From NCBI GenBank assembly GCA_037917675.1, contig JAVCBW010000009.1:1-34259 (forward strand): DNA of 34,259 bases, given 5' to 3'. Below, piece by piece: positions 1,766 through 19,445 of the stretch (the stretch's first letter is position 1; each line of letters begins with the position of its first letter). This stretch comes from Thermoproteota archaeon. GTDB lineage: Archaea > Korarchaeota > Korarchaeia > B14-G2. Under the pieces are notes generated by a model. It made no database searches and had not been told where the DNA came from. It was given only the letters and a program-made list of their open reading frames with translations. Made by a program: the position numbers and the translations under genes.

Positions 1766-1800
1766 TATATAGGTTTACGTCTGTAGGGCTGTTGGAGGTG
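1766..1800 (+). promoter_or_regulatory. Putative TATA box and RBS of the pilus operon
   Basis: TATATA at 1766-1771; GGAGGTG at 1794-1800, 6 nt before GTG 1807. Confidence 0.45.
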
Positions 1801-1806
1801 ACTGAT

Positions 1807-2205
1807 GTGAGGAGTGGGATCAGTACTCTGGTTGTGACTGTTGTTTTGATGGTGGTGGGTGTGGCTGGGGCTCTGCTGGCCTATGGTGTGCTGAGGGGGC
1901 AGATAAGGCTTGCAGGGAGGAAGATGGCTGGTGTAGCTAGCGCAGCTCAAGTGGAGATCATAGGGCTTGACTCAAATGGGAATATTGTGGTGAAGAACAC
2001 TGGGACTACTGTGATACCTGATGGGAACTGGGAGGTTGTGGTTGATGGGCAGGTCGTAAACCAGGTTACTAGCCTAGGTAGGCTGGAGCCAGGTGAGACT
2101 CTAGGTTTAAGCCCAGGGGCCTTCACGTTCCAGGAGGGCATAACCTATGTTATAGAGGTTAGTGGGCCAGCTGGCGCGACAGCACAGTACGTCTATAGCC
2201 CATAG
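1807..2205 (+). CDS. Archaeal type IV pilin (probable major pilin)
   Basis: Class III signal MRSG|ISTLVVTVVLMVVGVAGALLAY; globular domain with VKNTG and LEPGET motifs typical of archaeal pilins; RBS supports GTG 1807. Confidence 0.88.
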   Translation: MRSGISTLVVTVVLMVVGVAGALLAYGVLRGQIRLAGRKMAGVASAAQVEIIGLDSNGNIVVKNTGTTVIPDGNWEVVVDGQVVNQVTSLGRLEPGETLGLSPGAFTFQEGITYVIEVSGPAGATAQYVYSP

Positions 2206-2215
2206 TGGTGCCATA

Positions 2216-2587
2216 ATGCAGACTACTGCCATAGTTGTCGCGCTGATGCTCTTGAGTGTAGCCTTAGCTGCAGCTCTCAGCCAGCCTATGAGGCTGATGG
2301 TAGCTAGGGTAGCTAAGTCTTCAACTAGGGTAGCTGCCAGAGTAGAGATAGCAGCATTCAGCCCAGATGGCCAGGTTACAGCCAGGAACCTAGGGCCTGA
2401 CACCATACCAGCTGGCACATGGCATGTCATCATAGATACAGAGGTCAGAGGTGAGGCTAGGCTCCAGGAGCTCAAGCCAGGAGAAGCAGTGACACTAGGC
2501 TTCCAGCCAGTAGACCCAACTACATCACACTTTGTTGAAGTCAGTGGGCCAGCTGGAGTCACTGGGCAAGCAGGCTGGACACCCTGA
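2216..2587 (+). CDS. Type IV pilin paralog (tandem duplicate of 1807-2205)
   Basis: Aligns with the upstream pilin (VEI..G.V..RNLG..IP.G.W.VIID..L.PGE..VEVSGPAG); hydrophobic N-terminal helix; ATG 2216 follows GGTG. Confidence 0.8.
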   Translation: MQTTAIVVALMLLSVALAAALSQPMRLMVARVAKSSTRVAARVEIAAFSPDGQVTARNLGPDTIPAGTWHVIIDTEVRGEARLQELKPGEAVTLGFQPVDPTTSHFVEVSGPAGVTGQAGWTP

Positions 2588-2666
2588 TGAAGGCATGGAG
2601 CAGCCTAGCTCCAGGGGGCAGAGCCCCGAAGCTGGGGCGCCCACCTGCTAGGGTGGTTGCTTGGAT

Positions 2667-3095
2667 ATGCGTGGAGCTGTGGGGCTGGCGATCCTGCTAG
2701 CTGCAGGCATAGCTGCTGCAGCATCGCTAGCTGGAGGCTTAGCTGAGAGGCTCTTCTCAGAGAAGCCTGACCTCACGAGCTTGGTGGCAGGAGACGTGGA
2801 CTCAAGCTGGGAGGCGATCCTAGCTAGCCTAAGTGACCCTAAGGTCAGGGAGTTCACATCGAGGCATCCTCAGGCAGAGTGCTTCCCTCATCCTCTGAAC
2901 TCGACGGAGCTCCAAGCCCTTAGGGAAGCCTACCCTGAAGTAGACTGGCCTCCCATCGTCTGGCAGGTGTTCTGGGACTCCTGGAGCCTCCAGCAGCTAG
3001 AGAGCAGCTATCCCAGTATACCACCTCACCCATACCTTGTAGCCTATGTTTCAGCAGGTGGTGAAGTCCTGTTGGTGGAGGAGCATGAGAGGTGA
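2667..3095 (+). CDS. Pilin-like / membrane-anchored hypothetical protein
   Basis: MRG|AVGLAILLAAGIAAAA class III-like N-terminus; lies inside the operon. Confidence 0.6.
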   Translation: MRGAVGLAILLAAGIAAAASLAGGLAERLFSEKPDLTSLVAGDVDSSWEAILASLSDPKVREFTSRHPQAECFPHPLNSTELQALREAYPEVDWPPIVWQVFWDSWSLQQLESSYPSIPPHPYLVAYVSAGGEVLLVEEHER

Positions 3096-3099
3096 GACT

Positions 3100-3900
3100 A
3101 TGCTTAGGAGAGGCTATGGAGTCGTTCTTACACTAGGCCTCCTAGCTACTCTAGCCATTGCAGCAGCTATCCTCACCTTAGTGCCCTCTGCCTCTAGGAG
3201 CGAGCCAGCAATATATGAGGGCTTCAGAGACGCAACACTCCAGCTTAAGCAAGCTGTCGAGGAGGCAGCTGGCAGCCAGGGGACAGTCATAGAAGCAGAG
3301 GAGGCGCTCAGGCAGACATGTCAAGCTGTGAACCAGACTCTAGTAGAGAGAGGGATGAAGCTTGAGGTTTTAGAGCTGAGTGTAGCAGGCCCAGCTAGGA
3401 CCATAACACTAGCTTACAGAGTGTGGTGTGGTGGAAGCTTCCTCCAGAGCACCCTACAGGCAGCTGGCTCAGGCTCTCTAGAGAGGCCTCTAGAGCTCTC
3501 GCTGACACCAGCATGGGCAAACTGGACATATAAGCTTGCAGGAGACACCATACTAGTTACACTACCATCTGGAGCTAAGGCATATGTCCTAGTGGGATAT
3601 GTGCTCCAGAACCTTGGAGCTGACACGCTAGCTGTCCTCCATGCTGACCCAGATGCTGTGTGGATAGAGGTAGACGGCTTCAGGTATGGGAGCCAGGAGG
3701 CATCAACATGGCTATCAGAAGGCGAGTCTAAGGAGGTAGTGGTCCTATGGCTTGTATCCCCAAGCTTGAGGTCAAGCATGCTTCAAGCATGGCCTGAGGG
3801 ATCAGCTCTAGCTGACACTGCCCTCGCCTTATGGGAGAGGCAGCTTAGGCAGCTGGCAGGAGAAGCTAGCCTGAGAGGTGAGCTGGAGGTGAGTGGTTGA
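3100..3900 (+). CDS. Minor pilin-like protein with extra C-terminal beta domain
   Basis: GAGGTG RBS then ATG 3100; MLRRG|YGVVLTLGLLATLAIAAAIL class III signal; helix then beta-rich domain (LQNLG motif). Confidence 0.7.
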   Translation: MLRRGYGVVLTLGLLATLAIAAAILTLVPSASRSEPAIYEGFRDATLQLKQAVEEAAGSQGTVIEAEEALRQTCQAVNQTLVERGMKLEVLELSVAGPARTITLAYRVWCGGSFLQSTLQAAGSGSLERPLELSLTPAWANWTYKLAGDTILVTLPSGAKAYVLVGYVLQNLGADTLAVLHADPDAVWIEVDGFRYGSQEASTWLSEGESKEVVVLWLVSPSLRSSMLQAWPEGSALADTALALWERQLRQLAGEASLRGELEVSG

Positions 3901-5483
3901 AGGCGAGGCTCTCAGGGATGCTAGCTCTGATGGCAGCAATCACGCTCACAATAGTGCCACTGCAGCATGCATACACCCTACCTGGGCTGCCTCCAGGCTA
4001 CAGAAGCATGCCACAGCCAGACCCTGGGACACAGGAGTGGCTTGAAGAGAACTATCGCAGCATCATTCCTGCTTTTCCTGCCAGTGATTACTGGCTACAG
4101 CCTCCTCCGCCAGGTGGCTGTGGTGTCCTTATAGTGCAGGCAGTGTCATCTCAGAAGCTACCATACTGCTTCTGGCATGTAGTCCTAGAGAAATATGATC
4201 CATGCATAGGCTGGTATACTCAAGAGATGACGGCTAAGACAGATGGGAGGAGCCTACCGAAGCCAGAGACGTGGCAGGAGGCAGCTCCAGCAGCTACTCT
4301 GACCCCCACAGTCACTATGACGAGGACTAGAGTCGTCAGGAAGACTATTGAGGAGACAGCTTGGTCCACGAGCACAGCTAGAGCTACGAGAGCTGTGAGA
4401 GCTACCATAGCTAAGACTGTAAGGACTACTGAGACACCACCTATACCGCCATCACCAGCCCCAAGGCTAGTCGATCTCTCATCTAGGTGCTGGGGCATGG
4501 AGGAGTGGCTCCTAGAGGCCACATCTGACATCTATAACGCGACTCTCAGGCTGGAGGTCAGTGGAGTAGAGTTGGAGTCAGGGAGGCAGCCTCCCTACGC
4601 TAGGAGCATAGAAGCCTACCTAGATGGGTATCCAATCCTACACATATACGCTAGGCAGCAAGTAGATAGGTGGGCTGAGGGCACAAGGAGGTGCATCAAG
4701 CTCACCTTAACCTACCATGCCATGGAGTATGGCAAGGACTCTAGTAGTAGGGTTGTAGCGAGGTATGTGGTTGAGGGGTGGGTTGATGAGCAGGCTAAGA
4801 GAGGGCATATCGAAGCTTGGAGAGAGGGCTCCATAGAGGGCGTATATGAGGCAACGCTGGGGAGCATAGCCAGGGGCCTCCATAGGCTCAGCTTCAGAGT
4901 CACAGGGCTATACTGGGAGCTCCCGGAAGGATGGGAGGACCTGACTGGAGGCCAGGAGTATGTCTATGGGAGGAAGATAGCTAAGGCTGATATCAGCTTC
5001 AAGCTGACTGGAGCATGGGTCCAGGAGCCAAAGCTGGAGAGGCTGGGGAGCTATGGCACAAGCCTCAGAGGAGAGGAGTGGATAAGAGAGGGGTGGCCTC
5101 TCAAGTATGGGGTCAAGAAGACCTTAAGCTATAGGCTCACTAGGAAGGTCATATACCTTGGAGAGGACACTGAGAAGAGCATTGAGAGAAAGAAGGTGGT
5201 TGAAGCCAGAGCTGAGAGGAGGTATCTTGGGAAGGAGGTGGAGGTCAGGAGGGATGAGAGCATCACAGTCAGGAGATACTATGACTCTCAGAGAAGACGC
5301 TGGATAGTCGAGTACACGAAGACCACTAGGATAACGAGGATAGTGACCCACAGGTGGCTGAAGCTAGTGACTGAGGTCACAACCTGGCATATAACAGTCT
5401 ACATCACGACGCTAGAGCGCTACAGAGTCTTGTGGAAGTGGGTTCCACGAGTCGAGGAGAGGTTCTGCTGGGGGGGTGGGTAG
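3897..5483 (+). CDS. Secreted hypothetical protein with Thr-rich stalk, Ig-like domain and very long predicted beta-hairpin
   Basis: N-terminal signal peptide (MKARLSGMLALMAAITLTIVPLQHA); TVTMTRT.. Thr-rich tract; Pro-free, beta-residue-rich ~110 aa C-terminal segment; overlaps both neighbours. Confidence 0.75.
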   Translation: MKARLSGMLALMAAITLTIVPLQHAYTLPGLPPGYRSMPQPDPGTQEWLEENYRSIIPAFPASDYWLQPPPPGGCGVLIVQAVSSQKLPYCFWHVVLEKYDPCIGWYTQEMTAKTDGRSLPKPETWQEAAPAATLTPTVTMTRTRVVRKTIEETAWSTSTARATRAVRATIAKTVRTTETPPIPPSPAPRLVDLSSRCWGMEEWLLEATSDIYNATLRLEVSGVELESGRQPPYARSIEAYLDGYPILHIYARQQVDRWAEGTRRCIKLTLTYHAMEYGKDSSSRVVARYVVEGWVDEQAKRGHIEAWREGSIEGVYEATLGSIARGLHRLSFRVTGLYWELPEGWEDLTGGQEYVYGRKIAKADISFKLTGAWVQEPKLERLGSYGTSLRGEEWIREGWPLKYGVKKTLSYRLTRKVIYLGEDTEKSIERKKVVEARAERRYLGKEVEVRRDESITVRRYYDSQRRRWIVEYTKTTRITRIVTHRWLKLVTEVTTWHITVYITTLERYRVLWKWVPRVEERFCWGGG

Positions 5484-7278
5484 CATGAAGCCTGGGAGAA
5501 AGCTAGGGCTCATGCTATGGGTGCCTGCCCTCCTCACCCCCACATTTTTTATGCTCACTGAGCTCACATTCACATGGAGCCAGCCTTGGGCTTCAGCCTC
5601 AGGTCTAGACCTCTATACCTGGTGGCTTGTAGACATATACCCAAATTGGACCATCAGGTATAGAGTCACATATCAGCTAGCAAGGTTCAACCTGAGAACT
5701 GGAAGCTACGCTCCAGCCCTAGAGCATGGTGAGCTTCTCGCAGAGGAGGCATCTAGGATCCTAGAGCTCCTCAAGATGGGTAAGTGGAGGGAGCTAGCTG
5801 AGCTCTATGAGCCAGTGTGGAGCGAGGGAGACTGGAGCAGCCCAGGATACGTGAGGCAGAGGGTGCTCAGAGCTATCTCAGCCTACCTGATGTCTATGGG
5901 GGCTGCCCCAATGTACTATACCTCAGCCTTCACTAGGCCTAGAGCCTCAGCTAGCGAGCACACCTGGCGCGCTCACATGGAGGTTGAGGAAGTTAAAGGC
6001 ATATACGTGGACAGGAGCTATCTCGAGAGGCACGTGCGCTTCAATGAAGCCTCAGTGAGCTCTGAGAACGCCTCCTTCACCCTAGACTGCAGCTTCTACA
6101 TCTATGCCTCACCATACTTCCCATACATGAGGAGGTATGTGGAAGGAGCTCCTGGATCTATGGGGGTAAGCAGTCAGGCAGAGGCTACAGTGTTCTCTCT
6201 GTGGCTTCTCCACCCAGATGGTAGAGCCTCGCCAATAGAGGGGCCTATACACCACCTTGAACTCAGGCTGCATGGAGGCTTGAAGCTAGTGGAGTATAGG
6301 CTCTCCTGGATATACCCCTGGTCATTCAGGATGCTACCTAGCCAGCCTACTGGAGAGCCAGATGAGGGTGAGCTGGCTACGCAGCAGGAGTGCTGGCTTC
6401 TGTTCTCACCTAGCTACATCAAGCCAGAGGAGCCCACTAGGCTGGAGCTGAGTGTGTGGAGAGCTGAAGCTACAGGGTGGAGCCTCACCATAGATCCTAG
6501 AGGGAGAGGCTGGGGGGTTGTGCTAGCTACAGTAGGAGCATGGGGCAGGGTCTATGCTTCACCTAATGCAGTAGAGGTCGCCATAAGGTTCCCTTGGGCA
6601 CCAGGGTGGCTTGAACCACTCAACATCCTAAATGAGGAGTGGGCTCTAGGCTTTAAGGCTATAGCTGGAGCCGGAGACACTGAGGCCCTGAGGCTCCTAA
6701 AAGAGACCCTAAAGCTAGCTGAGAACGCTACGAGCAGAGTGCTCCTCGGAGGCCCGCTCAGAAACCCTGGGTCAGCTCAGCTCCTCGAGAAGACACGTCG
6801 CCTCTGCACTGAGATCATAGAGTACAGGCTAGACGAGAGGGAGGTGGAGCTCATCCTGCCCCTATGGGACACGTCTTTCAGAACTGACTTCAGGAGGAGA
6901 GGGCACCTGCATAGAGACTACTGCCTGATAGCTCTCACTGGAGAGTACACTTGCCCTCACGCCATGACAGATAGGCTGCCATCTCAAGCTGAAGTGCTGC
7001 TCTTAGCCTACACCCTGGGCTTCCAGAGCTGCTACAGGCGCACCCTCCTCATATGGGGGAACACAAGATATGGCACACTAGCAGGAGTGTTCTGGCTCAG
7101 CCAGAGGCCATGGAGACACATCAGCTTCCCAGCCTCTATCATAGTCCTAGAGTGGACTGACCTAAACGAGAATAGCATTCCAGATGAAGCAGACAGGTAT
7201 AGGGTGGTATACCCTAGCATCATGTGTGAGCTTGAAGCTGGCAGGTGGGCTAGCAGCCTGCTGAGAGAAGGTGGCTGA
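5476..7278 (+). CDS. Exported protein with C-terminal S-layer-type domain
   Basis: N-terminal hydrophobic segment; C-terminal DYCLI...LLIWGNTRYGTLAG...IIVLEWTDLNENSIPDEAD resembles the G-x-[TD]-R-x-GT-x-A module of Thermococcales/Methanococcales S-layer-associated proteins. Confidence 0.6.
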   Translation: MGSMKPGRKLGLMLWVPALLTPTFFMLTELTFTWSQPWASASGLDLYTWWLVDIYPNWTIRYRVTYQLARFNLRTGSYAPALEHGELLAEEASRILELLKMGKWRELAELYEPVWSEGDWSSPGYVRQRVLRAISAYLMSMGAAPMYYTSAFTRPRASASEHTWRAHMEVEEVKGIYVDRSYLERHVRFNEASVSSENASFTLDCSFYIYASPYFPYMRRYVEGAPGSMGVSSQAEATVFSLWLLHPDGRASPIEGPIHHLELRLHGGLKLVEYRLSWIYPWSFRMLPSQPTGEPDEGELATQQECWLLFSPSYIKPEEPTRLELSVWRAEATGWSLTIDPRGRGWGVVLATVGAWGRVYASPNAVEVAIRFPWAPGWLEPLNILNEEWALGFKAIAGAGDTEALRLLKETLKLAENATSRVLLGGPLRNPGSAQLLEKTRRLCTEIIEYRLDEREVELILPLWDTSFRTDFRRRGHLHRDYCLIALTGEYTCPHAMTDRLPSQAEVLLLAYTLGFQSCYRRTLLIWGNTRYGTLAGVFWLSQRPWRHISFPASIIVLEWTDLNENSIPDEADRYRVVYPSIMCELEAGRWASSLLREGG

Positions 7279-7295
7279 GCTGGAGGTGAGGGTGA

Positions 7296-7808
7296 GTGGA
7301 GTCTATTGCAGCTGAGGGCATGCTGCTCCTGGTAGCAGTAGGGGCTCTGGTAGCAGCCGTCAAGCTATATGCTCCCATAGTCTCCTCGAGAATACAGGAG
7401 GTGAGGCTCAGGGAAGCTGAGAGCCTGAGCCTAGAGCTCCAGCAGATGCTTGAGGCTGCCATAAAGCAGGGCCCTAACACAACAGTCTACATGTCTCTTG
7501 CCCTCCCAGAGGGATGCATCCTAGTAGGGAACTCAACAGCACTGAAGCTCATCTTGCTCAAGCCTCCTAGGTATGAGGATGCCACCTTGCTGTACAGGAG
7601 TGAGCTGACTGAGCTCTGGGTTGAGCCTCATGGCACCTTCCTTGCTTTCGCTGTGAAGCTCTCTCCTGAGCTGGTGGGGGAGGGCTGGAGCCTGAGCTTC
7701 AGCCCTCTACCTGGCATCAGTGGCCCATGCCTCTCTAGAGCTGGAGGCTCTCTTGAGGCTTGGGCTAGGAGCCTAGGTCAGGTGGTGGAGGTTGGCTGGG
7801 GCAGCTAG
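7296..7808 (+). CDS. Minor pilin-like protein
   Basis: SIAAEGMLLLVAVGALVAA hydrophobic helix with early Glu, long helix, then QGPNTTVYMSLALPEG.I.V, a pattern typical of archaeal minor pilins. Confidence 0.65.
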   Translation: MESIAAEGMLLLVAVGALVAAVKLYAPIVSSRIQEVRLREAESLSLELQQMLEAAIKQGPNTTVYMSLALPEGCILVGNSTALKLILLKPPRYEDATLLYRSELTELWVEPHGTFLAFAVKLSPELVGEGWSLSFSPLPGISGPCLSRAGGSLEAWARSLGQVVEVGWGS

Positions 7809-9222
7809 GGTGCTTTCAGCCCTCACACTCATGCTGCTCACAGCCCTATCAGGCTGCTTAGGCCAGAGGCAAGCCTCTGAGCCTACACCTACATCTGAGG
7901 CTACCTCTACACGTGAAGCTGAAGCTACACCTACCATGACACCTACATCTGCCCCTGTCCCTACTCCTACATCCATCACAGCTACGCCACCTCCATCACC
8001 TACGCCATCAGCTACACCATCTGCTTCCGATGTAGCTGTGTACTCTGTCAGCTGCCCTAGGAGGGCTAGGATAGGAGACGTCTTAGAGGTTGAGGTGAAC
8101 ACGTCAGCTGACATGGTGCTGGTTGAGCTCATGGGCCGTAACTACACGGCTGAGCTCAGAGGCTGCGTTTTCAAGGCCTACGTGAGCCTAGCTAAGGCTC
8201 CTGAGAGGGAGGCTACCATGAGAGTCTACTGCATTAGAGGTAGGGAAGCTGAGGTCAGGGAGCTTAAGCTCTTCGCATATGACATCCCAGAGGTGGAGCT
8301 GAGGGTTGAGCCCCAGAAGCTCACTTTCAGCGAGATCATCATAGAGAAGTATAGGAGGTATCTCGTCAGAGGTCTCCAGCTAGAGGAGGTGAGAGCTGAG
8401 GCTGTGGTCGAAGATAGCTCACAGATACTGGCTGTAACCCTATACTATGGAGCCGATAGCACAGGAACTTTGAGTAGAGGTGTCAGCATGGAGCTCTCAG
8501 AGGGAGGTACATGGAGCTGTACTCTCCCCTGGGAGCTTGGGCTAGAGGCTCTGAGAGCTGGGCTAGCTGATGATGGAGTACACCTTAGAGCTGTGGCAGA
8601 GGACAGGTGGCGTAACAGGGGTGTAGCTGAAGCTAGGCTCATGGTGGAGGTCAGGGAGCTAGTGATAAGGGGAGTCTCCTTCCATGAGCAGATCCATGAG
8701 AAGCCATGGTGCATGACAGCCTGCATCCAGATGCTCCTAGACTACTGGAGCTGTAGCCCCCTCCCATCTCAGGAGGAGATAGCAGAGCATGGTGGGTGGG
8801 GGGAGCCCACATATGGCTTCATATCCTACCTGAGGTCTCTAGGGTTCACCCTAGAGGAGTACAGGGTGAGCATGCAGGAGCAGAAGGTCGCTACAGCTAG
8901 GAGGCTCCTAAGCCAAGGCTACCCTCTGATAGCTGGAGTATTCATCCCAGATCTAGGAGGGCACGCCATAGTCCTATATGGCTATGACAATAGCAGAAAG
9001 AAATTCTACACTCTAGATCCAGCAGGGTGGATGAGAGAGGTGAGCTATGCAGAGTTCAGGCTCAGATGCTACCTGCTATATGTGCTGAAGCCCATCAGCA
9101 TGGGTCTAGGATGCCACCTGACAGGCCATCCAGCCCTCCAAGAGGAAGCTACATGTAAGCTAGAGACTCTGGCGGAGAGGCCAGGATTCTGGTGGAGGTG
9201 GCCTAGATGCATAGAGCCATGA
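7792..9222 (+). CDS. Lipoprotein C39-like (papain-fold) cysteine peptidase with Pro/Thr linker and Ig-like domains
   Basis: Lipobox ALSGC; PTPTS-rich linker; catalytic motifs FHEQ..PWCMTACIQMLLDYW, SQEEIA, GYPLIA, GHAIVLYGYD and YTLDPA. Confidence 0.85.
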   Translation: MAGAARVLSALTLMLLTALSGCLGQRQASEPTPTSEATSTREAEATPTMTPTSAPVPTPTSITATPPPSPTPSATPSASDVAVYSVSCPRRARIGDVLEVEVNTSADMVLVELMGRNYTAELRGCVFKAYVSLAKAPEREATMRVYCIRGREAEVRELKLFAYDIPEVELRVEPQKLTFSEIIIEKYRRYLVRGLQLEEVRAEAVVEDSSQILAVTLYYGADSTGTLSRGVSMELSEGGTWSCTLPWELGLEALRAGLADDGVHLRAVAEDRWRNRGVAEARLMVEVRELVIRGVSFHEQIHEKPWCMTACIQMLLDYWSCSPLPSQEEIAEHGGWGEPTYGFISYLRSLGFTLEEYRVSMQEQKVATARRLLSQGYPLIAGVFIPDLGGHAIVLYGYDNSRKKFYTLDPAGWMREVSYAEFRLRCYLLYVLKPISMGLGCHLTGHPALQEEATCKLETLAERPGFWWRWPRCIEP

Positions 9223-9386
9223 GCTTCCTCATCTCTATGAGCATAGTGGTTGGGGTAGCAGCTTATGGCCTCAGAGAGGTAGGGAGGAGAGCTGAAGTAA
9301 GGCAGTTGGCTCTGCAGCCTCTAGCTGAGTCCATATTGAAGAAGCTCCTCGAGACTCCTGGAAACTGGTCTAGGATGCCACCTGAC
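9103..9386 (+). repeat. Exact 20-bp direct repeat GGTCTAGGATGCCACCTGAC (9103-9122 and 9367-9386)
   Basis: Read directly from the sequence; copies are 264 bp apart and each is followed closely by AGGCC. Confidence 0.9.
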
Positions 9387-9683
9387 CCAGGCCTCTGCAT
9401 TGAGGGAGAGGAGGGAGCACTCTCATATGTGATAGACCAGGTGAAGCTTAGGAGGCTAGCTTCAATGAGTGAGGAAGAGCTTGAAGAGGCCTTCGGGCTA
9501 AAGGGGAAGCATGCTAGGATAGCAGTATACGTCTGGAGCCAGCAGCTAGGGAGGTTCCAGCTCTATGCTGAGGCTGGAGCTAGGGTCAGGAGGGCTGGGG
9601 CCTCAGCTAGGAGCCCAGCTGCCATAGGCCTAGGTGAGGAGCTCAGGCAGGCTCTTGTTGAGGTAGAGGTGTGGGGTGGCTGA
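9207..9683 (+). CDS. Minor pilin-like protein
   Basis: MHRA|MSFLISMSIVVGV class III-like signal; LLETPGNW....PGL motif seen in archaeal pilus-locus minor pilins. Confidence 0.7.
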   Translation: MHRAMSFLISMSIVVGVAAYGLREVGRRAEVRQLALQPLAESILKKLLETPGNWSRMPPDPGLCIEGEEGALSYVIDQVKLRRLASMSEEELEEAFGLKGKHARIAVYVWSQQLGRFQLYAEAGARVRRAGASARSPAAIGLGEELRQALVEVEVWGG

Positions 9684-9685
9684 GC

Positions 9686-10120
9686 ATGCTGGAGCTGGCT
9701 AAGCTCAGGCGTGGAGGCCTTTATAAGCCTCTATTGGCTTCTATGCTTGTGCTAGCTGGTCTTGGAGCCCTGGCTGCCCTGGCTGGGCTTAGGCCTGCCC
9801 TCGTGAGGCTCAGGCTGAGGAGGCAGGCTCAGCAGGCTGCTGAGCTCATTGCAAGAGAGATCCAGTTGGTGACTGAAGCTCACAGGATTGGAGCCAGCTT
9901 AGGCAGGAGGTACATCACGCTACCGAGGTACCTAGTAGACATCATAGAGGTGAATGAGACCCACGTGTGGGCTAGGGCCTCATCAGGAGCTCTATGGGCT
10001 TCTGCTGCAGTCGAGCATGGCTCCCAGCTGGTTAAGGGCAGCTATAGGATCTCACCTGGTGCAGTGGTCCTCTGGATTGAGGGAGATGAGGTGAGAGTAG
10101 GGAACCTTAGAGGTGGGTGA
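9686..10120 (+). CDS. Minor pilin-like protein
   Basis: KLRRG|GLYKPLLASMLVLAGLGALA; AAELIAREIQLV...G..YITLP pattern. Confidence 0.65.
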   Translation: MLELAKLRRGGLYKPLLASMLVLAGLGALAALAGLRPALVRLRLRRQAQQAAELIAREIQLVTEAHRIGASLGRRYITLPRYLVDIIEVNETHVWARASSGALWASAAVEHGSQLVKGSYRISPGAVVLWIEGDEVRVGNLRGG

Positions 10121-11072
10121 GTTGGATCTGGCTCCAGCTGAAGCCTTAATTGCATCAGTGATGGTAGCTGTCATGCTACTAGCTGGGCTCTCTGCCATGG
10201 AGCCGAGGTGGCATGGGAGCAAGCAGCTTGCTCTAGGGCTCGCTGGATCCTTAACACCGCTTGCTACAGAGTACCTGGAGTCTGACATGGAGCTTGAGGA
10301 CCTCAGGAGCAGAGCTGGAAGATGGCTTCAGCCATATGAGATGGAGATGAGGCTTGAGGGCGGGGTTAAGCTAGTCTACATGCTCGGGGGCTTCAGGTGT
10401 GAGCTTGAGGCTAAGCCTAGCCCCAGGAGGGTGGAGGCTAACGCCATGCTGCCAGTCCAGCTTCCGAGAGGACAGCTGAAGGGCTTCGCCATACCATATA
10501 GGAGAGCCTTCTACGCTAGAGACTGGCTTGAAGTCTACCTAGCCTTCATGTTTGAGAGAGGCGAGCCAGCTCCACCTGCCCTCAAGGTTGAGGCTACCTT
10601 ACTTGACAGTAGAGGCAGACCAGTAGCTATGCTTGGGGCTACCCCAGTCGACATGAGCTATACCCTCTATAGAGTTAGGTGGCTCATACCAGAGGAGCTG
10701 AGCCCTGGGAGGTATGAGCTCAGATCCACTTACACTGGCCCTGGTGGCCTCTGGGCTGAGGCTTCAGCTGAGCTCATGGTGGCAGCTGGCATGCCACCTA
10801 GCCTGAGTGAGCTTATCCCAGTGAGATGGTGGTGGAGGCTTGGAGAGAAGTGTGAGCTAACCGTGACGAAGCCTGGTGTAGCATTCAGCGTGAAGCATTC
10901 GCTTAAGGGCCGCTATGTATCAGGGAGAGCTGAGGGCACAGTAGTAGGCTTCAGCTTTACAAGCCCAGTTAACCTCGCTCCTGGCGTCTATGTGGTGGAG
11001 GCAGCAGGCTGCAGAGTTCCCGTAGTGCTCCTCCCCTTCCCAGCTTACGTGCTGATTGAGGTGGGTAGTTGA
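10113..11072 (+). CDS. Pilin-like protein with Ig-like C-terminal domains
   Basis: EALIASVMVAVMLL N-terminal helix; LLDSRGRPV..W.IP..L.PGRYEL and LAPGVYVVEA Ig-fold motifs. Confidence 0.62.
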   Translation: MGELDLAPAEALIASVMVAVMLLAGLSAMEPRWHGSKQLALGLAGSLTPLATEYLESDMELEDLRSRAGRWLQPYEMEMRLEGGVKLVYMLGGFRCELEAKPSPRRVEANAMLPVQLPRGQLKGFAIPYRRAFYARDWLEVYLAFMFERGEPAPPALKVEATLLDSRGRPVAMLGATPVDMSYTLYRVRWLIPEELSPGRYELRSTYTGPGGLWAEASAELMVAAGMPPSLSELIPVRWWWRLGEKCELTVTKPGVAFSVKHSLKGRYVSGRAEGTVVGFSFTSPVNLAPGVYVVEAAGCRVPVVLLPFPAYVLIEVGS

Positions 11073-11977
11073 GAGCTAAGCTAGGTCTACTTGCTGCAGC
11101 CACCTCAGCTGTCCTCCTATATTGGGGTATAGTGTGCTTCCATGCTGGGCTCATGCTGCTTAACACACCAGTTGAGCTCGAGGATAGCTGGGTGAGCTAT
11201 GCTAGCAGCAGGATCCCAAGTGAGTTGCTTGAGCACATTGAGAAGCTGAGCTTCGACAGCGCAGTTGACGTGCTTAACCAAGCTGCGCTAGTTTACCTGG
11301 TAATGGCTTTCTTCCCTGCTGCTATAGCAGCTTCATTCAAACATGAGCTGTACAGGGGAGAGGACAGGGAGAGGGAGCTGCTCTACATAGCTCTGCTGCT
11401 ACCTGCTGCCATAGCAGCTGCCTTTCCTCTCCCAGAGTCCTACTGGTCTAGAGCTAGGCTGCTCCCCTGGCCTATCCCAGCTGTCACAGCTGTGCTCCTT
11501 GCATGCGGGCTCAAGCCTAAGGCCTATCCTCTCCCACAGCTGATTGCAGCAACACCAGCTGTCTGGCTGCTAGCGCAGCAGCTGCTTACAGGAGATCAGA
11601 GCGTAGTGATGGCAGCATACGTAGTGGCAGTGGCTCTCATAGCTAGCGCTATGCTAGCTGAAGCCTCTACTAGACAGCACTCGAGTAGGATAGTAGGCTG
11701 GCTTATTGCAGTAGCTCTACCTCTCATGCTAGCGCTACTAGTGAGCTGGCTGCTTAAGCTCCCCTGTCTCCCAGCGTCCATTTCGGCACCTAAGCATGTT
11801 GCAGCAGGAGCTCCTGCTGCAGCCATCACTACAGCAATGGCAGCGATCCTATCGAGAGAAGGAGGGGAGGAGGTGACGATAGGGGAGCATAGAGTGAGAG
11901 GGCTCAGGCTGCTTACTGAGCTACTGGGAGTGGAGGTGTCGCTAGCTGAAGCTGAGGAGAAGCAGAGGCAGAAATAG
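11069..11977 (+). CDS. Multi-pass membrane protein of unknown function
   Basis: Roughly 8 hydrophobic segments; 4-nt overlap (TTGA) with the upstream gene. Confidence 0.7.
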   Translation: MRAKLGLLAAATSAVLLYWGIVCFHAGLMLLNTPVELEDSWVSYASSRIPSELLEHIEKLSFDSAVDVLNQAALVYLVMAFFPAAIAASFKHELYRGEDRERELLYIALLLPAAIAAAFPLPESYWSRARLLPWPIPAVTAVLLACGLKPKAYPLPQLIAATPAVWLLAQQLLTGDQSVVMAAYVVAVALIASAMLAEASTRQHSSRIVGWLIAVALPLMLALLVSWLLKLPCLPASISAPKHVAAGAPAAAITTAMAAILSREGGEEVTIGEHRVRGLRLLTELLGVEVSLAEAEEKQRQK

Positions 11978-12110
11978 AAGGGCAGATGAGCTATACCAAG
12001 CTTCCTTCGAGCCCACCAGTAGAGGGCTTGAGCTCATTGAGGGCTGTGCTTGGAGAACTGTAGGCAGAGAGTATAGGCTAGTAGAGATACCGCCGCCTCC
12101 AAGTGGGCTG

Positions 12111-13298
12111 ATGAGAGAGCTGCAGAGCTACATAGAGGGGAGGCTCGGCTCTAAGCCTGTGCGTGAGCTCATAAAGGAGGCTGTAGCCAGAGCTGTGAAG
12201 GCTAGAGGCTGGAATCCACCTAAGCAGCTCCTCAGGGCAGCAGCATACCACCTCCTAAAGGACATGGAGGGGCTTGGGAAGCTTACTCCCCTGCTCTGGG
12301 ACCCTGAGATAGAGGACATCAAGCTCCCTAGCAGAGGGGATAGGAGGCTATGGGTCATGCTCTCAGGGCTAACTGGCTGGCTTCCCACCAACGTGGAGCT
12401 AACTGAGGATGAGGCCAGGGAGCTTGTGCTTAAGATGGCTGAGCTATGTGGGAAGCAGGTGAGCCTCGCGAGCCCACGCCTCGAAGGCAAGCTCCCTAGT
12501 GGAGAGAGGGTGCAGGCAGCCCTGGGATATGAGATCTCAGAGGGTGGTACAGCATTTGTCATAAGGAAGTATGTGAGGCGTAAGCTCACTCTATGGGACT
12601 GGGTGAGGCAGCATGCAATAACACCTGAGGCAGCAGCTTACCTCTGGCTTCTCGTAGAGGAGGGGATATCAGGGCTCATAGCTGGGGAGACAGGGTCAGG
12701 TAAGACGACATTCCTCTCAAGCTTGCTCAGGCTCATCCCATGGGACAAGTCTATAATAACTGTAGAGGACACCCCAGAGATAGCACTTGAACACAGGAAC
12801 TGGATCCAGCTCGTCACTAGGCCTGGCTCAGGGTCAACTAGAGAGATAGGGTTCACTGAGCTCATGCGTGACGTGCTCAGGATGCGTCCAGACTACTGCA
12901 TCATAGGAGAGTCTAGGGGAGAGGAGACGAGGATCCTAGCTCAGTTCATAGCAATGGGCCGCACTGGCTTTGCTACCTTCCACGCGATCTCAGTCCAAGA
13001 TGCCTTGAGGAGGCTCCTAAGCCATCCTCTCAGCCTTACTCCAGAGCAGGCAGCCATGTTCAGAGTCATAGTGCTGCTGAGAATCCATGAGGGCAGGAGG
13101 CTTGTAGCTGAGATAGCTGAGACAGAGGCTGAAAACATGCTTGTGAAAGCCAGGAGCCTGTTTAAGCTTAGGGGAGGGAGGCTTGAGGGGAGAGTTGAGG
13201 ACAGCAGAGTCCTAGCGAGAGTAGCTGAGAGAAGAGGATGTAGCATGAGAGAGGTGCTCAGGGATTGGGAGGAGAAGGTGAGGAGGCTCAGGAGCTGA
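12111..13298 (+). CDS. Type II/IV secretion ATPase (VirB11/CpaF/FlaI family); true start probably upstream (11946 or 11986)
   Basis: LTPLLWDPEIEDI, Walker A GETGSGKTT, TVEDTPE, Walker B LRMRPDYCIIGESRGEE, ATFHA; frame is open back to 11946. Confidence 0.95.
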   Translation: MRELQSYIEGRLGSKPVRELIKEAVARAVKARGWNPPKQLLRAAAYHLLKDMEGLGKLTPLLWDPEIEDIKLPSRGDRRLWVMLSGLTGWLPTNVELTEDEARELVLKMAELCGKQVSLASPRLEGKLPSGERVQAALGYEISEGGTAFVIRKYVRRKLTLWDWVRQHAITPEAAAYLWLLVEEGISGLIAGETGSGKTTFLSSLLRLIPWDKSIITVEDTPEIALEHRNWIQLVTRPGSGSTREIGFTELMRDVLRMRPDYCIIGESRGEETRILAQFIAMGRTGFATFHAISVQDALRRLLSHPLSLTPEQAAMFRVIVLLRIHEGRRLVAEIAETEAENMLVKARSLFKLRGGRLEGRVEDSRVLARVAERRGCSMREVLRDWEEKVRRLRS

Positions 13299-14818
13299 TC
13301 CCTAAGCCTAGGCTGGCATACAGGATTGCCTGTAGACTCTTCCCTGAGAGCCAGCTGGCTAGGAGCCTAGCTGACAAGATGCCTGAGGATGCTGCTAAGG
13401 AGCTGCTGTCCACAGCTCTAGCTGCAGCCTCACTTGCAGCTGCAGTAGGCTACATGGCGAGAGCGCCTCTACCACTGGCGATGCTTCCACTCATAGCTGT
13501 CCCAGTGAGCCTGCTAGCACCCAGGTTAGAGGCTAGGTCTCTAGGTAAGGAGCTTGACCACAAGCTCTGGCATGTACTGGGAGCGATCTGGATCCTGTTC
13601 ACAGCTGGAAAGAACCTCTCCACTTCACTCGAGGCTGCAGCTAGAACCTCAGGAGGAAAAGCGAGGAGGTGGCTGAGCAGAGCAGCTGCTCACGTGAGGC
13701 ATCTAGGGCCTATGAGAGGGCTTAAGCTAAGCATAGACTTATGCCCATCTAGGAGGCTGAGGCAGCTACTGGAGAGGCTTCTAGACTACTATGTTGGGAG
13801 AGGGGAGGTGACCATAGATATGCTGAGGCGTGAGCTAGAGGAGCAGAGCACTCTTATAGAAGAGCAGCTTAAAGCTGCAGCGAGAAGACACATGCTTCTC
13901 CTCACAACATACACCATAGTGATGGTTGTCTTCCCAGTTGTGCTTGCTCTAGTATATGTGTTCAAGGCTGTAGCTGAGCTAGCTCAGCTAGACCTGATGC
14001 CGTTCATCATGGTGGTAGTGCTCCCTGCACCAGCTTTCATAGCCTTGTTCAGAGGGCAACCCAAGCTCTATAGGCTACCGAGGAAGCTTGTAGCTGTAAG
14101 CTGGGCTATAGCTTTAGCAGCTAGCAGCATGATGCTGGCAGCAGGCCTGAGCCTAGAGGTAGCAGGTCTAGCACTAGGCTTATGCTACCTTGTGGTAGCT
14201 AGAGAAGAGGAGAAGCTCCACCAGCAGGCAATAGAGCTACCTAAGCTCCTAGAGGACATCAGCGCTGAGCTGGCTGGAGGTAGGACGCTGAGCAAAGCTG
14301 TCCTCAGGGTGCAGGCAGAGTACAGCGGACTAAAAGAGGCGCTCAAGAGGATTAAAGCTCAGGCAGAGCTCTCAGCACCCTACAGCAGGACGCTTAAGGC
14401 AATGCAGAGAGCAGTGAGGCACGTGGAGACATCAAGCCTCCTAAGGCTGCTTGAGGAAGCTCTGAACTCCGGCGCAAGCCTACAGGAGGCTTTGAGGAGC
14501 ACATCAGAGTTCGGGAGGAGGCTCAGAGTAATATTCCTGAGGACAGAGGCAGAGAAAAAGCAGCACTACATCATAGTAGTAGCATGCTTCACCATAGCAG
14601 TAGCAAGCATCACACTAATCCAAGCACACCTAGGACTACAGGAGCTAATCCCACAGCAGGCAGAAGAGCTAGCACAGACACTAGACAAGCTTATAGCAGC
14701 ACAGGCGATAGCAGTAGGCCTAGTACTAGGCACAGCGAGAACAGGACACCTGACCTCAGGGCTAAGAGAGGTAGGCATCCTATCTGCCATAACCCTACTA
14801 GCACAGATGCTAGCCTGA
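13265..14818 (+). CDS. Type II secretion system F-family platform protein (TadC/FlaJ-like, two T2SSF domains)
   Basis: Follows the ATPase; two modules (TAGKNLSTSL..CPSRRLRQLL and ELPKLLEDISAELAGGRTLSKA..ALNSGASL) each followed by TM pairs. Confidence 0.88.
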   Translation: MGGEGEEAQELIPKPRLAYRIACRLFPESQLARSLADKMPEDAAKELLSTALAAASLAAAVGYMARAPLPLAMLPLIAVPVSLLAPRLEARSLGKELDHKLWHVLGAIWILFTAGKNLSTSLEAAARTSGGKARRWLSRAAAHVRHLGPMRGLKLSIDLCPSRRLRQLLERLLDYYVGRGEVTIDMLRRELEEQSTLIEEQLKAAARRHMLLLTTYTIVMVVFPVVLALVYVFKAVAELAQLDLMPFIMVVVLPAPAFIALFRGQPKLYRLPRKLVAVSWAIALAASSMMLAAGLSLEVAGLALGLCYLVVAREEEKLHQQAIELPKLLEDISAELAGGRTLSKAVLRVQAEYSGLKEALKRIKAQAELSAPYSRTLKAMQRAVRHVETSSLLRLLEEALNSGASLQEALRSTSEFGRRLRVIFLRTEAEKKQHYIIVVACFTIAVASITLIQAHLGLQELIPQQAEELAQTLDKLIAAQAIAVGLVLGTARTGHLTSGLREVGILSAITLLAQMLA

Positions 14819-16716: not shown

Positions 16717-16850
16717 CCTCAAGGTGGTTCAAGTAATTTTCCGTAGTATTCAACCACCTTGAGAGGGCCCTCCCGTTCCATCTGGCTCTATGAGCCAGAC
16801 TTCACCAGGGAGCGTTCGGGGGGAACGGAGCTCCCCACATCCTGACTTGT
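16717..16850 (-). ncRNA. Putative TnpB omega-RNA (right-end RNA) scaffold
   Basis: Overlaps the tnpB 3' end; stems CTCAAGGTGGTT/AACCACCTTGAG (16718-16729/16752-16763), TCTGGCTC/GAGCCAGA (16781-16799) and GGGAGC-GTTC..GAAC-GGA-GCTCCC (16808-16835). Confidence 0.6.
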
Positions 16851-17910
16851 AAAGGTTTAGAGTAGCTACGACATCTCTATCGAAGATTAAACCGCAATTC
16901 TTACACTTTAACAGCCTCTGCCCATTCGGGTTTAGTTTCGACTCACATATCGGGCAGAGGCCTGAAGCGTAGTTAGTCTTGAAATATCCGACTGGTAAAC
17001 CATTCCATTTAGCCTTATACTCCATGAAGAACTGCAATTTTCTGAAATTCCATCTGTTTAGCCTTCTTCTTATGCTTTTACCCTTTCTGTTGATTGATCT
17101 GTGTATGTACTTTAAGTTCTCCATTACTATCTTAGCGTTGTACTTACCGCTTCACGAATGATTATTGTTGACTTTGTGTAGATAATCTTCAACTCTTCTC
17201 TTTCCTCTCCCATAGTACTTTCTTAGGATTTTTCTCATCTTATGCAGTTTCTTGGCAAGTCTTCTTTGATTTTCTCCCTCTTCTTAGTGTTCATCGTGAA
17301 CTTCTTTCACTTTATAGAATATCCAGTCTTACTGTTTTAATGACCTCCCCATTCCTGAAAACCGAGTATGTAAATTTTTCTCGTTAACATCTATTGTCAT
17401 CACAGCTTCTGTATCTTTAAATTCGACCCCCTTCTTAAACGAAACTATGATGTGATCTCGTTTGATTATTATTTCACCAACGTCAAGTTCACCGCTCTTC
17501 CAAGCTTCAACGAACCTACGCTGGTACTCTCCTAAAACTAAGTTCACAGTTATCCAATCTCTCGGAGCAGTAGCAATCCTTATCTTATCACCTTCAAACT
17601 TGAAAATCACTTCTCCAAGCTTCACGAAATCTCTCTTAGCCTCTGGCTTTTCTCTGTCGGTCAAACCTTTCTTCTTTCTTTTCCTGAAGTTGTAGCAATC
17701 TTGCAGGCTGAATGGCTGTAGTGAGTGTGATACCTAGGATACCATCCCCTCTTCCACTCTTCGTAAACAGCTTTTCTAAGCTTAGCGTTAAGAAGTTACA
17801 CCAAGCTCCAAAGCTTTATCTATGCAAAATTCTATAATCTCTCTGAAATCTCTAAACAGCTCGTCTAAGCTCCCATAATATTTGAACTTAACAGACTTAA
17901 TTGCTTCCAT
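16750..17910 (-). pseudogene. tnpB: TnpB RNA-guided nuclease pseudogene (multiple frameshifts)
   Basis: MEAIKSVKFKY start at 17910; RuvC-I TIDVNE, RuvC-II IVMENL, LNRWNFRKLQFFMEYKA, Zn finger CPIC..CKNC, RuvC-III DRDVVATLNL, spread across several frames. Confidence 0.92.
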
Positions 17911-17980
17911 TCTCTTTCAGCTCCTTCTCAACAGTCCCTTTAAGCTTCTTAACCTCGTGACTTCTCATCCCATACAACTT
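17897..17980 (-). pseudogene. tnpA: C-terminal remnant of IS607 serine transposase
   Basis: Minus-strand frame reads KLYGMRSHEVKKLKGTVEKELKENGSN*, the characteristic IS607 TnpA tail, overlapping the tnpB ATG. Confidence 0.8.
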
Positions 17981-19445
17981 CAGCTACGATGTATCCATTG
18001 AACCTAGCTACAACTCTAGCTCTAGGGTCTCTTAGCACCAGTTGAGCCCTTCTCCCTGTGAGAACGAAGATGCCGCTCTTCCTTCCCTCTCTGATCTCCT
18101 TCTGAAGCTCCATGGTACTGACCTCCCTATACATCCCTGAGTCAGTCAGCCTGCCTGTAGTTAGGGTTATGTAGTCTGCTAGAGGGCCCATTGGTACATG
18201 TAGTATCTCTTCTTCAGGGATGTTATCAGATATCCACTTTGAAAGCTCTATTAGAGCTGGGTCGCTTAGGGAGAAGCCCCATGGGTCTCTGGCTTCAGCT
18301 CCAGAAGCTAGAGAGAGCTCAGCTATCAGAGGAGACCTACACTTCATGCCTTTAGCAGCCCATGGGATGCGTCCTGCCCCCGTGAGCACGAGTATGCTAG
18401 GCTCACATAGAGCTGACCCCAGAGCTAAGGCTAGTACTACTATAGCAGCTAGCCTCCTCCTCTTAGCTATCTCATCGAGGACTACAGCTGTAGCAAGCGC
18501 ATTCACCATGGGGGAGTGTAGCATATACCTTGAGCCATAGGTTAAGGCTATCAGGGTAAAGCCTACTGGAGCTGAAGCTGGAATTGAGTAAGCCCTCCTC
18601 CTACCTGTGAGAGCAGCTGAAGCCACAACACCAGCTGGAGTCAGTGTTAAGAGCAGTATGTTAGCTGACATAGCAGATGCAGCTAGCCTTATAGCATTGA
18701 ACCTGTCGACCATACTCAGATACTCGAGGTTTGCTGCAACGTGAGCTCCCCATGGGAGGTATAATGCTAAGGCTATGGCAGCTGATACGCCTAGGTCACG
18801 CCACAAGCTTTCACCATAGGCATATAGGATAGCAGCTTGCAGGAGCAGGCAAGCAAAGAATACTAGAGGGATCCCAAGGTGTAGGTATAGGACTACAGCG
18901 AGCAGGAGCCCTAGGGCAGCTCTCCTCCTAGCTAGGAGGAGGTAGGCTAGAGGAGGATAGAGGATGAGAGCTACTGCTGTTGGAGCCACTGAAACCTGCC
19001 ACATCCAGAAGTGAGCTGAGCTTGACAACAGGAGTATAGCTATCAGAGCTAGCCTAGGTGAGAAGAGCCTCCTTGAAACCAGGTAGAGTGAAGCCAGTGA
19101 GAGAGGATACTGAGCTACAGCGATAAGCCTCCCAACAGAGATGAAGTCAAGGCCTGTCGCAGCATGAAGCCACCAGATCAGTACATGAAGCAGTGGAGGA
19201 TAGAGGTTAGGCCTCCCAACTGGAGCATACTCATAGTAGTCCCAGAGGCAAACCTTACCATAGTCACTGAACATCTTTCCCATCAGCAAGTGGTATGGTG
19301 TGTCGAGACCTAGAGGGAGCTTACTCCAATCCAGCAGCAGTAGGCTAAGGTGGCTAGCTACAAGCACTATGGCAGCTAGGTCATACAGGCTAAGCTTAGC
19401 CCGTAGCCTACACCACCTGATAGCCTCACTCCCTACAACCATCAC
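17949..19445 (-). CDS. GT-C fold membrane glycosyltransferase-like protein (PMT/STT3-related N-terminus)
   Basis: GLDTPYH, YEYAPVGRPNLYPPLLH, many TM helices, soluble C-terminal domain (LSKWISDNIPEE). Confidence 0.65.
   Translation of the reverse strand: MMVVGSEAIRWCRLRAKLSLYDLAAIVLVASHLSLLLLDWSKLPLGLDTPYHLLMGKMFSDYGKVCLWDYYEYAPVGRPNLYPPLLHVLIWWLHAATGLDFISVGRLIAVAQYPLSLASLYLVSRRLFSPRLALIAILLLSSSAHFWMWQVSVAPTAVALILYPPLAYLLLARRRAALGLLLAVVLYLHLGIPLVFFACLLLQAAILYAYGESLWRDLGVSAAIALALYLPWGAHVAANLEYLSMVDRFNAIRLAASAMSANILLLTLTPAGVVASAALTGRRRAYSIPASAPVGFTLIALTYGSRYMLHSPMVNALATAVVLDEIAKRRRLAAIVVLALALGSALCEPSILVLTGAGRIPWAAKGMKCRSPLIAELSLASGAEARDPWGFSLSDPALIELSKWISDNIPEEEILHVPMGPLADYITLTTGRLTDSGMYREVSTMELQKEIREGRKSGIFVLTGRRAQLVLRDPRARVVARFNGYIVAEVVWDEKSRG

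Follow-up and report, generated by a model that had tools for sequence, protein, structure and literature searches.

A probable type IV pilus operon with genus-specific accessory genes in an uncultured korarchaeon

Organization of the operon and its pilus genes

The analyzed window, a 34,259-nucleotide (nt) stretch from a Thermoproteota archaeon of the Korarchaeia (assembly GCA_037917675.1, contig JAVCBW010000009.1), contained 14 consecutive open reading frames (ORFs; g01 to g14) that were all co-oriented on the + strand and spanned positions 1792/1807 to 14818. Their products included an assembly ATPase, a TadC-type platform protein, two pilins of one family, and several minor-pilin-like proteins, and the operon probably encodes an archaeal type IV pilus with accessory genes specific to one genus. 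An initial annotation made from the sequence alone had likewise described an archaeal type IV pilus or Tad-like operon, and this identification was borne out by the ATPase, the TadC protein, and the homology of the pilins.

Neighboring genes overlapped at 10 of the 13 junctions when the longest ORFs were considered and were separated by gaps of 73, 17, and 133 nt at the others. Shine-Dalgarno cores of 5 to 8 nt (GGAGGTGA, GAGGTG, and similar) were located 4 to 8 nt ahead of 10 of the 14 canonical starts, and the count rose to 11 when CTG 11946 was taken as the ATPase start. Several of these sites occupied the final codons of upstream genes, which explains the Gly/Val/Ser-rich C-termini ELEVSG (g04), CWGGG (g05), EVWGG (g09), NLRGG (g10), and IEVGS (g11). 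The ORF calls and the Shine-Dalgarno sites inside upstream gene ends thus agreed with the initial annotation, which had reported 14 co-oriented and largely overlapping genes with C-termini doubling as the ribosome binding site of the next gene. The tight coupling and the Shine-Dalgarno sites favor a single transcription and translation unit, along which the guanine plus cytosine (GC) content was even (0.54–0.57). A candidate archaeal TATA box (TATATA, 1766..1771, + strand) was identified approximately 25 nt upstream of the GGAGGTGA (1794–1801) that precedes g01, and its sequence suggests a promoter at this position.

One N-terminal hydrophobic helix was present in each product from g01 to g11. 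The major pilin gene g01 (1807..2205, + strand) starts with GTG 1807, with GGAGGTGA 5 nt upstream, and encodes the leader MRSG followed by a hydrophobic helix (ISTLVV...) and a beta-sandwich domain; a weak Pfam match to CARDB (18 bits) fell below the cut-off. The second pilin, g02 (2162..2587, + strand), starting at either 2162 or 2216 and having the C-terminus ...VEVSGPAGVTGQAGWTP, aligned with the g01 family. This family comprised 14 members, was present in all related loci, and was characterized by a leader ending in Gly, the motif (I/V)S(R/Q)V, the hydrophobic helix, a beta-sandwich, and a C-terminal VYGPxGT motif. A profile of the 14 pilins matched the archaeal type IV pilus (AT4P) pilin of P. 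calidifontis (8FK7, 144 amino acids, aa) from end to end (E 9.6e-10), which makes the major subunits homologues of a known filament-building protein.

Five further + strand genes encode minor-pilin-like proteins of the conserved core described below. The g04 gene (3100..3900; MLRRG/YGVVLTLGLL...) is open from 3046 and has GAGGTGA 4 nt ahead of ATG 3100, g07 (7296..7808) is preceded by GGAGGTGA 6 nt upstream, and g09 (9207..9683; MHRA/MSFLISM...) by GGAGGTG at the same distance. The g10 product (9671..10120) is basic, with an isoelectric point (pI) of 10.8, while g11 (10113..11072) encodes a larger pilin-like protein of 319 aa and probably starts at TTG 10122, which is preceded by GAGGTG at a distance of 6 nt. 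A small pilin-like protein that proved genus-specific is encoded by g03 (2661..3095, + strand; MDMRG/AVGLAILL...). Short leaders ending in Gly or Ala and followed by the hydrophobic helix were recognized in g01 to g04, g09, and g10 and are putative class III signals. The two pilins and about six minor pilins counted in the initial annotation correspond to the two major pilins found here and to six proteins of small or medium size whose N-termini resemble those of pilins.

The assembly ATPase of the FlaI/TadA family, g13 (11946..13298, + strand), matched T2SSE (PF00437) with 100.2 bits against a cut-off of 24.9 (E 1.3e-28) and retained the Walker A motif GETGSGKTT together with the other invariant residues. 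Its best solved relatives were the archaeal GspE-type ATPase 2oap (193 bits), FlaI 4ii7, and CpaF. The adjoining g14 (13265..14818, + strand) encodes a TadC/FlaJ-type platform protein with at least six hydrophobic segments that matched T2SSF (PF00482) in two stretches (E 2e-9; 37.9 bits against a cut-off of 25.2) and was 22–33% identical to the TadC adjoining the ATPase of each relative. Both Pfam assignments supported the VirB11/FlaI ATPase and the TadC/FlaJ protein named in the initial annotation.

The public gene call starts g13 at an ATG and gives a protein of 395 aa. A conserved N-terminal motif (ELIEGCAWR...) lay upstream of the first ATG (12111), in a frame that is open from CTG 11946. 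This codon directly follows a TAG, has GGAGGTG 6 nt ahead of it, and is separated from ATG 12111 by a stretch without ATG, GTG, or TTG. The ATPase start in a second genome of the same genus (G001; L048 2350-2500) stands in the same context (GGAGGTGTCGCTAGCTGAAGCTGAGGA), which suggests a conserved CTG start, and CTG 11946 is the probable start of g13.

No domain of KaiC/FlaH, archaellin, or prepilin peptidase was detected in the 14 products, in agreement with the absences listed in the initial annotation. The sole Peptidase_A24 of the genome (PF01478, 34.7 bits against a cut-off of 26.5), of the PibD/FlaK type, adjoins a TadC-like gene on another contig (G000:C1:171949-172269), and the lack of a prepilin peptidase gene in the locus is therefore ordinary. 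In total, the genome carries five ATPases that exceed the Pfam cut-off for T2SSE, three of them on contig C41. Judging from this gene content, the organism apparently has several pilus-type systems and no archaellum.

Conserved core and genus-specific accessory genes

Eight loci around ATPases of the g13 clade were compared using tblastn, phmmer, and iterated jackhmmer. Homologues of g04 and g10 were identified in the loci of five relatives and those of g07, g09, and g11 (308–423 aa for g11) in the loci of six, where the conserved genes accompanied the ATPase, TadC, and either one or two pilins. By sequence comparison, a nine-gene core consisting of g01, g02, g04, g07, g09, g10, g11, the ATPase, and TadC is common to other genera of the class.

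The remaining genes g03, g05, g06, g08, and g12 had no homologues in the fetched loci of other genera, which came from six further genomes carrying an ATPase of this clade. Matches to g05, g08, and g12 were restricted to 2 of 40 class genomes, the source genome and G001, with identities to the G001 copies of 54, 46, and 43–52%, respectively; full-length g06 was distributed over the same two genomes, and the position of g03 in G001 was held by a 142-aa ORF. The gene orders g03-g04-g05-g06 and g08 ... g10-g11-g12-ATPase were maintained in G001 on two short contigs, its ATPase fragment being 86% identical to g13 over the assembled part. Because this order is shared and the proteins, at 43–58% identity, retain Cys, Trp, and Gly residues, the accessory genes are considered real. 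They were inserted at four places, namely g03, g05 with g06, g08, and g12. The co-occurrence of such cargo genes with the ATPase clade, raised in the initial annotation, did not hold, as six other loci of the clade lack them; synteny of the cargo was present in the single relative of the same genus and absent from every relative outside it. A viral origin of the five extra genes was also considered and found no support, since none of g03, g05, g06, g08, and g12 matched the PHROGs.

The g05 gene (3897..5483, + strand) encodes a secreted orphan protein of 528 aa composed of a signal-like N-terminus, a Pro-rich N-terminal part with three conserved Cys, a linker rich in Thr and Arg, and a strongly basic C-terminal third (residues 401–528; pI 10.2, 31 Lys+Arg). 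Its relatives were the G001 copy and P0123, 99% identical to that copy, and an exhaustive HMMER search with a g05 profile against 1.84 billion representative proteins yielded nothing beyond P0123. Neither Pfam, NCBIfam, nor PHROG gave a match to g05. The second secreted orphan, g06 (5476..7278, + strand; 600 aa), had a single full-length homologue (P0125, 58% identity) on the same 21.5-kilobase contig as the g05 homologue and no Pfam or NCBIfam match at E ≤ 0.1. Both proteins were without a C-terminal membrane anchor, and their predicted structures, computed from two-row alignments, were unusable (mean predicted local distance difference test scores, pLDDT, of 33.8 and 31.0).

A module of approximately 130–175 aa (GNTRYGTLAG...LEWTDLNEN; window positions 6706–7278) forms the C-terminus of g06 at about residues 415–590. 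Modules of this type, with the consensus GGP..., GxTRYGTxAG ... LEWTDxNGNG, were matched in 11 of 40 class genomes and were C-terminal in all four secreted relatives examined. No Pfam match was obtained in these four relatives, and a profile search of the PDB gave nothing below E 0.06. The module may represent a surface-attachment domain family. The initial annotation had named an S-layer-domain protein at g06 and a giant beta-hairpin protein at g05; the database searches lent no support to the former, and the latter is a protein of 528 aa whose beta-richness was seen only in the unusable model.

The product of g08 (7792..9222, + strand) is a cysteine peptidase with a C39-like papain fold, consisting of a lipobox-like LSGC signal, a Thr/Pro linker, a beta-rich middle, and the peptidase domain. 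It matched Peptidase_C39_2 (PF13529) over residues 297–411 with 37.1 bits against a cut-off of 24 (E 5.9e-9) and Peptidase_C70 (PF12385) with 28.3 bits against a cut-off of 19 (E 1.8e-6), and nothing below E 0.06 was found among PDB sequences. The Cys of PWCMTAC and the His of GGHAIV aligned with five other PF13529 matches of the phylum and occupy what we take to be the catalytic positions of the family. The motif LTALSGC at residues 16–22 fits the lipobox consensus, and lipidation is putative; the N-terminus is missing from the G001 assembly. The lipoprotein cysteine peptidase of the initial annotation was thus upheld as a PF13529 peptidase with its Cys and His, the lipoprotein part remaining putative. 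Among the 43 species genomes covered by the phylum-level search, PF13529 occurred in six, and outside the genus it was never on a contig with an ATPase-clade match.

Finally, g12 (11069..11977, + strand) encodes a genus-specific polytopic membrane protein with at least six hydrophobic segments, which agrees with the multi-transmembrane protein of the initial annotation. Its identification as a diverged TadC was rejected (hhalign probability 0.4%), as was that as a prepilin peptidase, for which a 53-residue patch aligned with the A24 protein of the genome at E 0.038 and no A24 Pfam match was obtained. In G001, the g12 homologue (L048 1480-2399, G001:C156) consisted of two ORFs (107 and 199 aa) that overlap, which reflects a frameshift, an error of the assembly, or a true split of the gene.

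ATPase lineage, known systems and genomic surroundings

A collection of 5.8 billion proteins contained one partial match to g13 (87% identity), followed by eleven proteins with 45–51% identity (322–372 bits) and then a drop to 218 bits. The 55-row ATPase tree, obtained by a quick search without bootstrap and containing no characterized references, placed g13 within a 19-row clade with a support of 100 in the Shimodaira-Hasegawa-like approximate likelihood ratio test (SH-aLRT) and a stem of 1.01 changes per column. The sister group (support 93) included one protein labeled Thermoprotei. ATPase paralogues from the source genome were badly extracted (end branches of 6–9), and their placement was not used.

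At E ≤ 1e-60, the ATPase clade was matched in 20 of the 61 genomes searched, the source genome among them; within the main family of the class (f2), 15 of 36 had a match. The genera differed widely: 1 of 21 genomes was positive in the largest genus, compared with 5 of 5, 4 of 4, and 4 of 5 for three other genera. As far as searched, and judged from these sequence matches, the pilus lineage appears confined to one small archaeal phylum. A pattern scan of the genome contigs with generic Walker-type motifs returned 16 loci with distant ATPases only (best identity 36%).

Two variants of the locus were observed in relatives. The clade ATPase of one genome (G024:C7; L030 14847-18747) measured 914 aa and contained an intein with a LAGLIDADG endonuclease (Intein_splicing, LAGLIDADG_3); immediately upstream of it were a fragment of 88 aa from an ATPase N-terminus and an ORF of 190 aa fusing an ATPase piece to a pilin, and these fragments point to a local duplication or rearrangement. 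A related genus carried a paralogous pilus locus (L055 5669-13964; L056 1312-10117) with the same pilin family and an ATPase 40–42% identical; also encoded there were an ATPase of the MinD/ParA type and a protein of about 480 aa that is secreted and has no Pfam match.

Models of characterized systems scored far below their thresholds. For g13, the NCBIfam FlaI equivalog NF058587 gave 207 bits (cut-off 550), BasE NF053672 168.3 bits (cut-off 1000), and the GspE models approximately 44 bits; for g14, the sole NCBIfam match was UpsF NF046075 with 35.5 bits (cut-off 400). The families compared were therefore FlaI, BasE, and UpsF, since the NCBIfam matches included no model for AapE/AapF or UpsE, and the ATPase lies outside them as the initial annotation had anticipated, with scores below the cut-offs and a clade of its own. 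No Sulfolobales-named proteins were present among the best 120 ATPase homologues listed. The claim that the system is not an archaellum was likewise supported: none of the ATPases of the genome reached the FlaI cut-off (best 417.5 bits against 550), and the archaellin family PF01917 had no match in the 92.7%-complete genome, one of the 14 pilin family members giving a weak match (E 0.006). Pfam and NCBIfam found no KaiC/FlaH or ArlF/G/X/C/D/E among the 14 products, the only trace being ArlF with E 0.098 (12.8 bits against a cut-off of 110).

Comparison with solved and surveyed pili placed the operon close to several known types. Like the pilin of the Pyrobaculum pilus (8FK7), its major pilins are small and have one domain, a short leader being followed by an N-terminal helix and a beta-sandwich; the Pyrobaculum locus carries a KaiC-family ATPase gene (PMC10334743, 2023), whereas none occurs among the 14 products. 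The survey by Makarova, Koonin, and Albers (2016; PMC4858521) describes pilus loci of archaea in which many minor pilins evolve rapidly. Such loci also encode extra membrane proteins and one or two large proteins with signal peptides, interpreted there as adhesins, minor pilins, or S-layer-like proteins, and the evolution of these systems is seen as modular and combinatorial. The survey further reports a 'strong link' of transglutaminase-family surface peptidases to some pilus systems and suggests a role in pilin processing or degradation. The presence of large secreted, membrane, and cysteine peptidase genes in pilus loci, treated as unusual in the initial annotation, had therefore already been described.

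The clade 4 systems of Thermoproteales (4B/4E/4G) in this survey (PMC4858521) resemble the operon in their ATPase, TadC, PilA-like major pilins, many minor pilins, large signal-peptide proteins, and extra membrane proteins. They differ in that the ATPase here belongs to a separate clade of one small phylum, that no FleN/MinD ATPase is present (one occurs in the paralogous locus of the related genus), and that the large proteins lack a C-terminal membrane anchor and detectable relatives beyond the genus. Similarly, the clade 1 (Epd-type) pili of Methanococci and other euryarchaeal pili are linked in the survey to a papain-fold surface cysteine peptidase (PMC4858521); here the ATPase lineage is another one, the peptidase is C39-like (PF13529/PF12385) and not transglutaminase-like, and its link to the pilus is seen in one genus only.

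The NCBIfam scores separated the operon from the Bas and Ups systems, with BasE at 168 bits against 1000 and UpsF at 35.5 against 400. The general build of the operon, with the class III signals putative, is that of the Aap and Ups pili and the Bas bindosome system of the Sulfolobales, which have an ATPase, a TadC-like protein, and pilins with class III signals, their peptidase being encoded elsewhere. The bacterial type II secretion system (T2SS) resembles the operon in that both combine an assembly ATPase and a polytopic platform protein with a set of pilin-like minor subunits, but the ATPase here is of the archaeal FlaI/TadA branch, and no secretin, GspC/L/M, or outer-envelope conduit family was found among the 14 products with Pfam and NCBIfam. 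Archaea generally have no outer membrane, so that a comparison with the T2SS conduit is functional only.

The genes flanking the operon were unrelated and of housekeeping type, with Pfam matches to YdjM, DUF998, and spermidine synthase, followed farther out by TatD, creatininase, an AAA ATPase, and an ABC-2 transporter. The hexamer TAGCTG occurred 161 times in the whole window against 85 expected, a count reached in none of 100 shuffles. Its interpretation as a regulatory repeat of the flanking spacers was rejected given its over-representation across the whole window, and the excess looks like a genome-wide oligonucleotide or codon-pair bias with nothing specific to the operon. The GC content fell to 0.38 at positions 17001–18000, with strongly negative GC and AT skews, around small minus-strand ORFs (16750–17124 and 17329–17664); a 498-aa minus-strand ORF without Pfam match (17949–19445) adjoins this stretch.

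Function of the operon and its significance

The preferred interpretation is that the operon encodes an archaeal type IV pilus, most probably a filament that serves adhesion and does not rotate, with the genus-specific accessories as described, and this combined reading is held with reasonable confidence. Its parts differ in strength: that the system is a pilus is very likely, while the roles proposed for g05, g06, g08, and g12 have about an even chance of being correct. The prepilin peptidase would trim the class III-like leaders, after which the ATPase hexamer and TadC would raise the pilins from the membrane into the filament, and the five minor subunits (g04, g07, g09, g10, and g11) would prime or tip it. 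The g05 and g06 proteins may act as secreted, adhesin-like binding proteins associated with the pilus or the cell surface. A membrane-anchored extracellular peptidase (g08) could mature, trim, or release g05/g06 or the pilins, and g12 could be an extra membrane subunit of the pilus base.

Several points weigh against this interpretation. The filament is predicted here from its genes, and sequence cannot separate pilins from pseudopilins, such that a short, non-filamentous assembly would also be possible. Leader cleavage is putative: the FlaFind motif consists of K/R-G ahead of the helix, and g01 has R-S-G instead, while g07 and g11 carry no positive charge before the helix. In addition, no more than two species are known to have the accessory genes, and the roles of g05, g06, g08, and g12 are drawn from operon position and signal sequences.

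The initial annotation had favored an undescribed secretion or contact machine with an envelope conduit, and no result pointed to a conduit, T2SS-like export, or contact dependence. Export in the manner of a T2SS, with a short pseudopilus pushing g05, g06, and g08 through the envelope for release or display, would suit the signal-like N-termini and translational coupling of these three proteins, the orphan status of g05 and g06, which have no other assigned role, and the extra polytopic protein g12. However, the core of ATPase, TadC, and minor pilins occurs without these genes in the loci of six other genomes, and the machine is therefore independent of g05, g06, g08, and g12. The homology of the pilins to a true filament subunit, the lack of a conduit- or secretin-like family among the 14 products, and the absence of an archaeal T2SS analogue from the available sections of PMC4858521 also argue against export, which we regard as improbable. 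No better prospects are given to the related proposal that the genus-specific inserts turned a conserved pilus into an export-and-display machine, an archaeal analogue of the T2SS in which the pilus would carry or push g05 and g06 to the surface, g08 would mature or release them there, and g12 would be an added membrane subunit.

The filament might instead serve cell-cell contact or aggregation in the manner of the Ups pili of Sulfolobales, with g05 and g06 recognizing the partner. The g05, g06, and g08 proteins are 46–58% identical between the two species compared to 86% for the ATPase, which fits recognition proteins, but fast divergence is common to any surface protein. Binding to DNA or glycans is conceivable for the basic C-terminal third of g05, but no DNA-transfer genes lie within the window. 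UpsF, although the only NCBIfam match of TadC, scored far under its cut-off, and no homology links the operon to this function. A contact pilus is accordingly given a small chance. The five extra genes might also be passengers, surface-protein genes that share the promoter of the pilus and are physically and functionally unrelated to it. Their absence from all other fetched ATPase-clade loci, the location of PF13529 peptidases outside the genus on contigs other than those with an ATPase-clade match, and the occurrence of the g06 C-terminal module in many unrelated secreted proteins are consistent with this proposal. Against it stand the insertion of the genes at four separate points of the core, where stops overlap with starts and Shine-Dalgarno sites are present, an arrangement kept in the second species despite a sequence divergence of approximately 50%, and the uniform GC content of the operon. 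An unrelated set of passengers is therefore unlikely, and the type IV pilus with genus-specific accessories remains the preferred interpretation.

A literature search, judged by titles and the openings of abstracts, found no paper on the pili of this archaeal group. The new elements are the ATPase lineage with its fixed minor-pilin set, the tie between the pilins of this lineage and the solved filament 8FK7, the C39-like peptidase in place of a transglutaminase-like one, and the two orphan large proteins g05 and g06. The general understanding of archaeal surface machines is unchanged, as hyper-diverse and rapidly evolving pilus loci with unexplained large proteins were already known in this region of the archaeal tree. 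The operon defines a type IV pilus lineage with five fixed minor subunits in little-studied, uncultured archaea of marine sediments and offers a natural comparison, one pilus core occurring both with the five-gene accessory module and in its absence. Such a comparison could show how archaeal pili gain adhesins, processing peptidases, and extra membrane parts.

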